Positions 61,889 to 64,000 of a DNA stretch of 64,000 bases are shown here, one piece after another. The stretch's first letter is position 1; each line of letters opens with the position of its first letter. A model generated the notes under the pieces. That model saw nothing but the letters and a program-made list of their open reading frames with translations, was not told the origin of the DNA and did not search any database. This DNA is from a virus: the IMG/VR virus record IMGVR_UViG_3300021961_008712, positions 105,751-169,750 of that record. One strand, given 5' to 3'. The position numbers and the translations under genes were made by a program.

Positions 61889-62620
61889 ATGACAAAAGCA
61901 CAAATCGTTGATATCAAGATCAACAAATTAGAAACACAGCTTGAACAAGCTAATGAGGTTCGTCAAGAGTTTGAAAAAGCTCGAGGAGATAAGTACTTTG
62001 AAATTATTCAGAAGTATTTTGGAGGAGAGTTTTCTCTTGAAGATGTTTACATTAAACATAATTGGGGTACCTCTTATGAAGTTCTTCGTCCTAAAGAAGG
62101 ATATAGTTACGATAAAGAATTAATGACTATTCGTATTGATGATAGTTGGAAGACTAGTGAATTTGAAGAAATTAAGACTTCTATGTACTCAACTAGTGAA
62201 AATGGAGTTTGGGAATTAGAAAGACTTATCACCTGTGGTGAAGTAGCTAAAGTTATTCTTGATTTTAGTGACGATATTATTGCAGAGTTCAATACTGTTC
62301 GTGATGAATTTAAAACAAGCATTTCAGAGTCTAGCTCTAATGTATGGAAACTAGAACGAGATATCAAACAACTTACAGAAGATAAAAATCAGTTCGAACT
62401 AGAACGAAAAATGGATCTTCTTGAAACTACCGGTATAGAGTTTTCTAAGCCTGTCAATCTAGATGTTAGATGGGACTGGACTGTACGAAACATCAATAAA
62501 GCTAGAATTATTGCTAAGACTAAATCTGGCAAATCAGCATCTTTAACTCTTGAAACTATTCATGGTGAAGTTAAAGTTGAAAATGTAAGGATAGATAAAA
62601 TTAATTCAATATTAGTATAA
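61889..62620 (+). CDS. Hypothetical coiled-coil protein
   Basis: ATG at 61889 lies downstream of the promoter. Confidence 0.7.
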   Translation: MTKAQIVDIKINKLETQLEQANEVRQEFEKARGDKYFEIIQKYFGGEFSLEDVYIKHNWGTSYEVLRPKEGYSYDKELMTIRIDDSWKTSEFEEIKTSMYSTSENGVWELERLITCGEVAKVILDFSDDIIAEFNTVRDEFKTSISESSSNVWKLERDIKQLTEDKNQFELERKMDLLETTGIEFSKPVNLDVRWDWTVRNINKARIIAKTKSGKSASLTLETIHGEVKVENVRIDKINSILV

Positions 62621-62637
62621 TTGTTCATAACCTGGAA

Positions 62638-62661: not shown

Positions 62662-62747
62662 GCCTCGGTGGTGGAATAGGTAGACACGCCGGACTTAAAA
62701 TCCTGTGGGCTGTAGAGCCCGTGCCGGTTCGACCCCGGCCCGAGGTA
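62662..62747 (+). tRNA. tRNA-Leu(UAA)
   Basis: Acceptor GCCTCGG/CCGAGGT, anticodon loop CTTAAAA, long variable arm and T-arm GCCGG-TTCGACC-CCGGC. Confidence 0.92.
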
Positions 62748-62764
62748 CTAAAAAAATAAAAGAC

Positions 62765-63028
62765 ATGACATTTAAAAATTTAAGTTTTACCGACCATCCA
62801 GTTATACCTGGAGCAATTCAAGCAGCTATTATTTGTAATAATGGCAAAAGAATTAGCATTGTAGCTGGAACTAATTTATACAGTCATAGTAAAGGCGGAA
62901 TAAGAGCTGCTGTTGATAATCCAGAAGAAGTGATTAGCTTCGAGGTCCTTGTAGAGGGTGAGGAAGATGTGAGAGGTTTTCAAAGTAGGCAAGATATAGA
63001 TAATATACTTGCTGTGAATAATCTCTAG
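62765..63028 (+). CDS. Hypothetical protein within tRNA cluster
   Basis: ATG at 62765 after tRNA-Leu. The track start at 62705 lies inside the tRNA. Confidence 0.65.
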   Translation: MTFKNLSFTDHPVIPGAIQAAIICNNGKRISIVAGTNLYSHSKGGIRAAVDNPEEVISFEVLVEGEEDVRGFQSRQDIDNILAVNNL

Positions 63029-63035
63029 AAAACAG

Positions 63036-63109
63036 GGACCAGTAGCTCAGCTGGATAGAGCATCTGCCTTCTAAGCAGACGGTCGCAGGTTCGAGTCCTG
63101 CCTGGTTCA
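63036..63109 (+). tRNA. tRNA-Arg(UCU)
   Basis: GGACCAG/CTGGTTC acceptor, TCTGC-CTTCTAA-GCAGA anticodon arm and canonical D/T arms. Confidence 0.95.
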
Positions 63110-63114
63110 CACAT

Positions 63115-63186
63115 TGATCTATGGTGTAATTGGCAACACGACAGATTTTGGTTCTGTAATTTAAGGTTCGAGTCCTTATAGATCAA
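63115..63186 (+). tRNA. tRNA-Gln(UUG)
   Basis: TGATCTA/TAGATCA acceptor, ACAGA-TTTTGGT-TCTGT and TAAGG-TTCGAGT-CCTTA. Confidence 0.93.
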
Positions 63187-63189
63187 CAC

Positions 63190-63266
63190 CCGGACGTATC
63201 CCCTCGGTCTTATACGCCGCAGAAAGGGTAATTGGTCACATGTGGGTTCAACCCCCACCGTCCGGA
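63190..63266 (+). ncRNA. tRNA-like RNA lacking a 5' D-arm, UAU anticodon-like loop
   Basis: 7-bp acceptor CCGGACG/CGTCCGG, T-arm GTGGG-TTCAACC-CCCAC and CGGT-CTTATAC-GCCG arm. D-loop-like TAATTGGT lies 3' of the anticodon arm. Confidence 0.75.
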
Positions 63267-63278
63267 CCCGTGATATAC

Positions 63279-63421
63279 TGTAAGGTGTTGAAATTGGCAG
63301 ACATGCCCTCCTGTCTCGGGGGTGAGGAACATCTGATAAACAAAGGATAATGGGTTGACCACAATGCATGCAATGTCCTTTGGCTAAAGACCTCGTGGTG
63401 GTTCGAATCCATCCCTTACAG
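63279..63421 (+). ncRNA. 143-nt tRNA-like RNA, GUC anticodon, 74-nt structured variable region
   Basis: TGTAAGG/CCTTACA acceptor, Leu-type D loop, CCCTC-CTGTCTC-GGGGG and T-arm GGTGG-TTCGAAT-CCATC. Confidence 0.78.
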
Positions 63422-63525
63422 CCTAGTAAATTAAACAGTAAAAATGTTGTATCTTATCAGTTTTTTTCTTATCTTATTGATATTAACTAAGCTTCCTAGA
63501 GGCTATAAAATTAAAAGGTTTTAGT

Positions 63526-64000
63526 ATGCAAACATTTCTACCCTATAGAAATTTTAAAAAATCTCTCGAATGTTTAGACGATAAACGTCTAGGAAAACAG
63601 AGAGTTGAAACATTTCAGATATTAAATAATCTGTTAGGACGTCCAAAAAAGGACGGTACTCCATATAAAGGCTGGACTAATCATCCTTGTTGTGTAATGT
63701 GGAGAGGCTACGAAGATGCTCTTAAGTTATATCTTAATGAGAGTATTAACGTCTGGATAGCTAGAGGTAAGAATAATACAATGGCATATGAAGAGTTTGA
63801 TGTATTTAGAATTAAGATGCCTTGGTGGTTGGGTAACGAAACCTTTCATTCCTCTCACAGAGCTAACCTTCTTAGAAAGGATCCAGAATACTATAGTCAG
63901 TTTGGTTGGACTGAAGATCCTGCTGATCCCTATGTCTGGCATGATAAAGATAACAAATGGTACAAACAACATGTAGGTATCCCTAAGAGGGAATATTTTA
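63526..64000 (+). CDS. 3'-partial MSMEG_6728/pyrimidine-dimer DNA glycosylase-like protein, not in ORF track
   Basis: MQTFLPY...LD.KRLGKQRVE..QI, GW.NHP...MWRGY..AL and PWWLG..FH.SHR.NLLRKDP.YY. Open to the window end, with a class I motif at 63446-63475. Confidence 0.85.
   Translation, partial: MQTFLPYRNFKKSLECLDDKRLGKQRVETFQILNNLLGRPKKDGTPYKGWTNHPCCVMWRGYEDALKLYLNESINVWIARGKNNTMAYEEFDVFRIKMPWWLGNETFHSSHRANLLRKDPEYYSQFGWTEDPADPYVWHDKDNKWYKQHVGIPKREYF

Follow-up and report, generated by a model that had tools for sequence, protein, structure and literature searches.

A tRNA-like RNA with an oversized variable arm

The final 64 kb of a 169,750-bp virus record (here termed the window, i.e., the whole stretch of DNA that was analyzed) carries a same-strand tRNA cluster that ends, after a second odd tRNA-like gene, in an RNA with a Leu-type body, a GUC anticodon-like triplet, and a very large variable arm. 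This combination raises the question of what the gene is: a working tRNA, an interrupted tRNA, or an RNA with another role. The element reads as a complete tRNA-like cloverleaf of 143 nt at positions 63279 to 63421 (+), from U1 to the discriminator G73 (Table 1), with boundaries set from the family alignment. C74 is present at 63422, and the full CCA is not encoded in the DNA. Folded alone, the window RNA gave a z score of -2.78.

TABLE 1 Features of the giant-armed RNA and of the tRNA cluster that it ends
Feature	Position in window	Strand	Comment
Promoter-like site	62592-62621		Upstream of tRNA-Leu
tRNA-Leu(UAA)	62662-62748	+	Upstream same-strand cluster
tRNA-Arg(UCU)	63036-63110	+	Upstream same-strand cluster
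tRNA-Gln(UUG)	63115-63187	+	Upstream same-strand cluster
Second odd tRNA-like gene	63191-63267	+	Neighbor, not part of the giant-armed RNA
Acceptor stem	63279-63285 with 63414-63420	+	7 bp; 100% paired, 5/7 pairs changed on both sides
U8 G9 between acceptor and D arm		+	Sequence reading
D arm, class II type	63288-63304	+	3-bp stem, 11-nt loop with G18 G19
Anticodon-like arm	63306-63322	+	5-bp stem plus G26-U44 pair; helix covaries
Anticodon-like loop CUGUCUC	63311-63317	+	GUC, U37, C38
Variable region	63323-63396	+	74 nt; one U before the helix-closed domain, GU after
Variable-arm domain, helix-closed	63324-63394	+	71 nt; helices 4-6 of the model covary
Arm closing helix, GAGG/CCUC	63324-63327 with 63391-63394	+	4 bp; covaries
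Arm 3-bp helix	63332-63334 with 63388-63390	+	Covaries; preceded by A-rich 5' bulge
Arm conserved internal loop	63335-63340 opposite 63383-63387	+	Letters kept in long and short members
Arm 9-bp helix	63341-63349 with 63374-63382	+	Covaries; capped by 24-nt tip
Tip motif GGUUGACCAC	63353-63362	+	10 nt; from alignments, only in long (type A) members
Perfect 8-nt palindrome UGCAUGCA	63365-63372	+	A residues on flanks; candidate RNA-RNA pairing site
T arm	63397-63413	+	5 bp, loop UUCGAAU; helix covaries
Discriminator G	63421	+	Sequence reading

The initial annotation had described a 143-nt RNA with a Leu-type body, a GUC anticodon, and a 74-nt folded variable domain, and this description was confirmed, with every main helix covarying across homologs. 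The pyrimidine that it placed at position 37 is U37 of the loop CUGUCUC. Its 7-bp acceptor stem stood, whereas the possible extra C-G pair did not, since family members have C, U, or A at position -1. Likewise, the GAGG/CCTC closure and the 9-bp helix proposed for the variable domain both covary, whereas the inner mini-hairpins of the tip (helices 7-10 of the model) had no covariation support among 27 homologs. Pair 10-25 of the D stem is a U-U mismatch in the window copy; in the covariation analysis of the 27 homologs, A-U, U-A, G-C, and C-G pairs were all observed in the D-arm helix.

The body is that of class II tRNA-Leu (RF00005), with the same 7-bp acceptor, 3-bp D stem, long D loop with G18 G19, and 5-bp T stem with the loop UUCGAAU. 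The extra arm of the phage's own tRNA-Leu leaves the body at the same point and is likewise preceded by U and followed by GU as linkers. In contrast, the arms of class II tRNAs measure approximately 13 to 20 nt, compared with 71 nt and conserved internal-loop letters in the giant-armed RNA; the discriminator of tRNA-Leu is A rather than G, and the giant-armed RNA has the loop CUGUCUC with U37.

Standard annotation tools overlooked this gene. ARAGORN with default settings reported only three ordinary tRNAs in the window and did not call the tRNA-like RNA, and searches with Rfam 15, including RF00005, yielded no match at the RNA at the gathering score or at E ≤ 10. The matches returned elsewhere at E ≤ 10 were real tRNAs and chance fragments only; a YrlA match in the region was rejected as a chance match to real tRNAs. 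Literature searches found no published description of the RNA family, which, as far as our look-ups show, is uncatalogued and outside Rfam 15. The consequence for annotation is a gene family that is absent from Rfam and missed by tRNA finders.

Viral homologs and covariation

Three BLAST queries against GenBank phages found no cultured carrier phage and returned one homolog, from the uncultured 636-kb record LR756504 (74% identity), which differs from the window RNA by compensatory changes in several stems. Pattern scans of IMG/VR yielded seven distinct copies, from which a covariance model (R1) was built. Within viral loci, R1 scored family members at 82 to 170 bits (167.8 bits for the window copy) and ordinary class II tRNAs at no more than 49 bits, the best nonfamily matches being tRNA-Leu (43 to 49 bits), followed by tRNA-Tyr (37 to 40 bits) and tRNA-Ser (25 to 27 bits). 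The model identified approximately 35 copies in uncultured phages with sizes of 65 to 636 kb, and a stricter pattern identified the RNA in more than 119 metagenome contigs, which is a lower bound.

Among 27 viral members, 93.3% of the cells in the alignment of paired positions were paired, and 31 of the 46 pairs showed double-sided changes. None of 500 shuffled controls was as good, and sliding the partner strands reduced pairing to 39 to 52%. Covariation supports the four cloverleaf stems (acceptor, D, anticodon, and T) as well as the closing, 3-bp, and 9-bp helices of the arm. The loop (C/U)UGUCUC also turned up in members retrieved with a search pattern that ignored the anticodon loop, which shows that its conservation is not an artifact of the search. 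Members of the family share a class II body, UCUC at positions 35 to 38, G73-C74, the 4-bp and 3-bp arm helices, and a GAUAAA/CUAA internal loop, and the window copy has all of these features. With hundreds of copies now found and the helices of the insert covarying, the earlier proposal of a tRNA-scaffolded functional RNA is supported. We are highly confident that the RNA represents a real, conserved, host-derived family that is unrelated to preQ1.

Distribution in Bacteroidota and a separate phage lineage

With the stricter pattern, the RNA was found in at least 120 GTDB species genomes, all belonging to Bacteroidota among the matches listed. These include members of Cyclobacteriaceae, Cytophagaceae, Flammeovirgaceae, Saprospiraceae, and some Chitinophagales (e.g., the genera Aquirufa, Ohtaekwangia, and Sporocytophaga). 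When genomes were sampled with R1 (E ≤ 1e-15), 104 of 151 Cytophagales genomes (the order of Aquirufa) were positive, each with one to six copies of 98 to 175 nt. R1 also detected the RNA in all five genomes of one small GTDB order and in about 16 of 151 genomes of a phylum-wide sample. Standard annotation thus leaves this RNA unseen in approximately two-thirds of the sampled Cytophagales genomes and in phages of 65 to 636 kb.

Bacterial copies stand alone as genes and are followed by terminators of their own. An Lrp/AsnC-family regulator gene preceding sufB and sufC is the divergent neighbor in 93 of the 120 bacterial loci listed; other neighbors encode an acyl-CoA synthetase, a peroxiredoxin, and PGI. 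We take the Lrp/AsnC-sufB/sufC neighborhood as what may be synteny, not as functional evidence. Short paralogs of about 110 to 125 nt also occur in bacteria, often in tandem with the long form; in Cyclobacteriaceae, for example, a long type A copy adjoins a paralog of about 118 nt with the loop CGAUCUC. Tandem arrays of four to six copies with a spacing of about 200 nt were observed in Flammeovirga pacifica (L234), in a Sporocytophaga metagenome-assembled genome (L268), and at loci G251 and G329. The strain F. pacifica WPAGA1 has five tandem copies, and Aquirufa species have a single copy.

In a tree of 180 distinct core sequences, no bacterial rows occur in the clades that contain the viral copies and the majority of the metagenome copies; the window RNA belongs to one such clade of 16 rows. 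Phages carry their own lineage of this RNA. Judged from these sequences, the window RNA is most likely a phage-borne copy of a conserved Bacteroidota tRNA-derived RNA. Its preservation in independent phage lineages suggests that it is important during infection.

The anticodon-like loop and tRNA-Asp

The GUC triplet invites comparison with tRNA-Asp. Each of five host genomes also encodes a class I tRNA-Asp with the loop CUGUCAC, G1-C72, and G10; these genes were located by their loop pattern, as BLAST with a phage tRNA-Asp query missed them. Similarly, three phage loci with large tRNA sets (L081, L118, and L119) encode a normal tRNA-Asp(GTC) besides the giant-armed RNA. Because an ordinary tRNA-Asp coexists with it in hosts and in some phages, the giant-armed RNA is not the working tRNA-Asp. 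Nor does it combine a class I body and a 4- to 5-nt variable loop with being the sole GUC tRNA. It shares with the host tRNA-Asp(GUC) the letters C32 U33 G34 U35 C36 and C38, the G2-C71 pair, and G73, but the host tRNA is of class I and has G1-C72, G10, and A37, compared with U1-A72 and U37 in the giant-armed RNA.

The identity set of Escherichia coli AspRS comprises G73, G2-C71, G10, G34, U35, C36, and C38. Six of these seven elements are conserved in type A copies, the exception being position 10 (A, U, or G); U1-A72, G2-C71, G73, and C74 are invariant in these copies. The loop is less constant when the whole family is considered. Short bacterial paralogs have the loops CGAUCUC, CGGUCUC, and CGUUCUC, further members have UUGUCUC, CUUUCUC, and UCGUCUC, and one short variant has a UUC (Glu-type) loop. 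The only loop letters fixed across the family are U35, C36, U37, and C38, whereas positions 32 to 34 vary, including U33 and G34. As far as our look-ups show, loop variation that leaves only positions 35 to 38 fixed appears to be new. The idea that the loop pairs with the D loop or the arm was dropped after visual inspection, because the variants do not covary.

These letters bear on whether the RNA decodes. A working, perhaps mischarging, decoder would be charged by SerRS or AspRS and read GAC/GAU, like the allo-tRNAs. The complete cloverleaf, the 7-nt loop with U33 in the window copy, and the position in a tRNA cluster fit this explanation, and a long arm with G73 is a SerRS signature, which makes serine charging a live alternative. 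Allo-tRNAs share the long variable arm, G73, and nonserine anticodons, and UAU and GUC are two of their three predominant anticodons (PMC5389517). Their geometry differs, however: allo-tRNAs have 8/4 or 9/3 acceptor/T stems and a long D stem capped by a tetraloop, and they occur in Clostridia, Proteobacteria, and Acidobacteria (PMC5389517; Mukai et al. 2017), whereas the giant-armed RNA has a 7/5 geometry, with an eighth pair not conserved in the covariation analysis, a Leu-type D arm, and an arm several times longer, and is found in Bacteroidota and their phages. At position 37, which is a purine in decoders, U is invariant, and G33 or C33 in paralogs breaks the U-turn, so the combination of U33 and a purine at position 37 that marks decoding tRNAs is absent. 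SerRS ignores the anticodon, which leaves the invariant letters 35 to 38 unexplained, and the conserved unpaired letters of the arm go beyond what a mere SerRS handle needs. With a normal tRNA-Asp also present in the five hosts checked and in three phages, we regard a decoding role as unlikely.

Arm core and phage-specific palindromes

All members have in common an arm core consisting of the 4-bp closing helix, an A-rich 5' bulge, the 3-bp helix, and an internal loop whose two strands read GAUAAA and CUAA. UAA and GAU of this loop adjoin the 3-bp helix and are arranged as in the UAA/GAN motif, which mediates long-range contacts (PMC2615604), and the loop is larger than the canonical motif. An internal loop of the UAA/GAN type is thus a candidate assignment, which we offer as a lead.

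The tip distinguishes the phage copies. In these, a perfect palindrome without a spacer, flanked by A residues, almost invariably fills the sequence that separates the tip motif from the 3' strand of the 9-bp helix, and the palindrome differs between lineages. Perfect palindromes of at least 6 nt occur in 16 of 19 distinct phage tips (16% in shuffled sequences) and in 10 of 67 bacterial tips (24% in shuffled sequences). Twelve different palindromes were observed among phage copies, always with a self-complementary central dinucleotide; besides that of the window, they include UGCCGGCA, UGUACA, AAUUAAUU, GCGCGC, GCAUGC, GCUAGC, GUGCAC, and GUUGCAAC, and those of 10 to 12 nt include ACUGUGCACAGU. 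Two pairs of near-identical RNAs differ by a double change at the center of the palindrome (GCAUGC in L068 versus GCGCGC in L024, and UGCAUGCA in the window versus UGCCGGCA in L006). A few phage copies (L118 and L119) have an ordinary hairpin or no palindrome. As far as our look-ups show, a palindrome pattern confined to the phage copies appears to be new.

Because adjacent letters cannot pair within a chain and palindromes of 6 to 8 nt cannot form hairpins, selection for pairing between two RNA copies is the simplest reading of this pattern; the longer palindromes could also fold as hairpins. In RNAcofold homodimer predictions, the minimum-energy structures were domain-swapped duplexes, and this was equally the case for controls in which the palindrome had been destroyed. 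The dimerization initiation site of HIV-1 is a purine-flanked kissing loop with a 6-nt self-complementary sequence, GCGCGC or GUGCAC. The same two hexamers occur, flanked by A residues, at the tips of phage copies. The settings differ: the HIV-1 sequence lies in a 9-nt hairpin loop, and the palindrome of the proposed phage RNA dimer lies in a tip of 24 nt beside a conserved motif. In bacterial copies from Flammeovirga (L234:3689-4631), the tip consists of a 4-bp hairpin with a 9-nt loop that holds the palindrome AUGCAU between purines; judged by eye, its layout is like that of a retroviral kissing loop.

Proposed function

Overall, the reading that we favor, and to which we give an even chance of being right as a whole, is a processed Asp-type tRNA-like RNA that does not decode and whose arm is a handle for a partner, with the phage version probably dimerizing. 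Most likely, the RNA would be cotranscribed with the phage tRNA cluster, excised by tRNA-processing enzymes, and CCA-tailed like its neighbors. Such processing is suggested by acceptor and T arms that are intact, by conservation of G73-C74, and by the absence of a promoter or terminator belonging to the RNA itself; no terminator-like site was found after the RNA in the window. The retention of G73, G2-C71, G34, U35, C36, and C38 leads us to propose that the RNA probably docks on AspRS, where it may be charged. U37, the loss of U33 or G34 in paralogs, and the coexisting normal tRNA-Asp suggest a role other than ordinary decoding. The 71-nt arm would then be a folded handle that probably binds a partner. 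In phages, the self-complementary tip would allow two copies to pair into a symmetric dimer. We suggest, tentatively and from sequence features, that such a dimer, to which each copy would contribute an acceptor end and an Asp-type loop, could bridge the two subunits of a dimeric enzyme that binds tRNA, such as AspRS, or of a different host factor, which it would hold or redirect in the course of infection; this is a doubtful possibility. If true, it would be a rare natural RNA dimer on a tRNA scaffold, and a phage tip that changes yet stays self-complementary offers a simple, testable hypothesis. The RNA unites a tRNA body, aspartate-tRNA recognition letters, and a large folded domain, and a function for it would add to the short list of tRNA-derived RNAs that act outside decoding.

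RNAs with partly comparable features are known. T4 encodes stable RNAs of similar size, as the initial annotation had noted: rnaC (species 1; 139 nt) and rnaD (species 2; 119 nt) are small stable RNAs of no assigned function at the downstream end of the T4 tRNA cluster, and rnaC ends in a T-arm-like hairpin. Homology with them was rejected, as neither matched R1 (which matched only tRNA-Leu and tRNA-Gln in T4 [L018]) and no such armed cloverleaf is visible in their sequences. The YrlA/Y RNA-like family (RF02553; PMC4201824) is another noncoding RNA of bacteria and phages that reuses tRNA architecture. In YrlA, however, the tRNA-like module is internal and has no anticodon arm, and the RNA ends form a Ro-binding stem, whereas the ends of the giant-armed RNA form an acceptor stem.

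Alternative functions

In line with the nuclease decoy raised in the initial annotation, the phage copies might instead serve as decoys for, or cleavage-resistant stand-ins against, tRNA-cleaving host defenses, with anticodon nucleases and systems of the Septu/retron-Eco7 type, which act on class II variable loops, as candidates. Some known defenses cleave class II tRNA-Tyr in its variable loop and are countered by phage tRNAs in which this loop differs (PMC13096335). The separate clades and phage-specific tip of the phage copies would suit such a role, as would a window phage that has only three tRNAs but two odd tRNA-like genes. A pure phage decoy nevertheless leaves unexplained that the RNA is primarily a core host gene in Cytophagales, and no linked nuclease gene was found in the phage or host neighborhoods examined; we consider this explanation improbable.

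Another role outside the ribosome would be that of a carrier for tRNA-dependent amino acid chemistry, e.g., charging with Asp by AspRS followed by amidation by GatCAB. GatCAB reads U1-A72, which is invariant here together with the Asp identity letters, and the variant with the UUC loop and the divergent Lrp/AsnC-family neighbor are compatible with such chemistry. With that regulator at the head of a sufB/sufC operon, the link may reflect synteny alone, and phages have no clear reason to need a carrier of this kind; we regard this role as very unlikely.

The initial annotation had proposed that, in a phage that makes preQ1, a UGU-loop RNA could be a TGT substrate or a decoy that limits the loss of preQ1 to host tRNA. 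U33-G34-U35 does stand in a 7-nt loop in the window copy and in all type A members, and the window phage has QueC. The proposal is not supported by the distribution of the RNA, which is a chromosomal gene family of Bacteroidota, or by that of QueC, which was found in 2 of 24 carrier phage records and in 1 of 5 near-complete virus records and was also absent from the 636-kb GenBank record (completeness unrated). Paralogs that keep the arm and U35-C38 have lost U33 or G34, which TGT needs. Flavobacterium phage immuto, a cultured relative (the PolA of the window phage has 68% identity to that of immuto) that produces a modified base, does not carry the giant-armed RNA; the weak R1 match in its genome is an ordinary tRNA-Ser only. 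A link between the RNA and 7-deazaguanine genes was rejected from the distribution of QueC in carriers, and a preQ1-related role is highly improbable. As far as our look-ups show, this explicit test of the RNA against QueC appears to be new.

Finally, the view that the gene is an ordinary tRNA-Asp with an intron or mobile insert removed after transcription, which the intact cloverleaf outside the insert and inconsistent calls of 3 of 27 members as intron-bearing tRNAs by ARAGORN with its intron option might favor, has next to no likelihood on sequence grounds: the insert lies in the variable region and not at 37/38 (as the initial annotation had correctly noted), its removal would not yield a class I tRNA-Asp since the body is of class II, no intron or ribozyme family matched even at E ≤ 10, covariation supports its helices, conservation of its loop letters extends from bacteria through to phages of 636 kb, and even the short members retain a long arm built on this core loop.

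Variant copies and neighboring genes in phages

Two phage copies are damaged: L014:2909-3048 (-) is without the acceptor 5' strand and the D arm, and L138:3807-3930 (-) has an internal deletion running from the D arm as far as the anticodon stem. Both are identical to L004 in their 3' parts and lie inside phage tRNA clusters. These copies indicate that the gene decays in some phages; an origin as integration-site half-copies was rejected on inspection of the loci and a listing of their ORFs (open reading frames), as they look like deletions inside phage tRNA clusters instead. Two other copies, L081:1342-1511 (-) and L119:6180-6353 (-), have an extra D-loop insert of approximately 20 to 26 nt besides the giant variable arm. 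R1 also gave overlong tRNA-like matches (97 to 158 nt; 28 to 41 bits) in phage contigs L037 (1957-2059, 10173-10279, 10394-10516, and 10650-10807), L051 (7215-7351), and L042 (9733-9829), which may be further tRNA-derived RNAs with inserts. ARAGORN with default settings called no tRNA at the L037 and L051 sites.

Across the phage loci, no conserved protein neighbor was found outside one closely related subclade, in which the RNA is accompanied by genes for ThyX and PhoH and by unnamed ORFs. The second odd tRNA-like gene of the window combines a T arm with an acceptor stem of 7 perfect base pairs and is without a 5' D arm; its long arm ends in the loop CUUAUAC (UAU anticodon, A37), and the D-loop-like sequence AAUUGG stands in place of the variable loop. 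It shows 81 to 83% identity to an unannotated spot in approximately 77 Streptomyces phages, immediately 3' of a gene for a nucleotidyltransferase that weakly matches RlaP. A 184-kb phage contig (L015) carries both the giant-armed RNA and a counterpart of this gene. Between tRNA-Leu and tRNA-Arg, the window encodes an 87-amino-acid ORF (62765-63028 [+]) with no Pfam match, and a gene for a pyrimidine-dimer DNA glycosylase lies downstream of the giant-armed RNA (63526-63999). In LR756504, an ORF rich in paired cysteines (L001:975-1497 [+]) ends a few bases before the RNA; judged by eye, it resembles an HNH-type endonuclease, and such genes are frequent in phage tRNA clusters.
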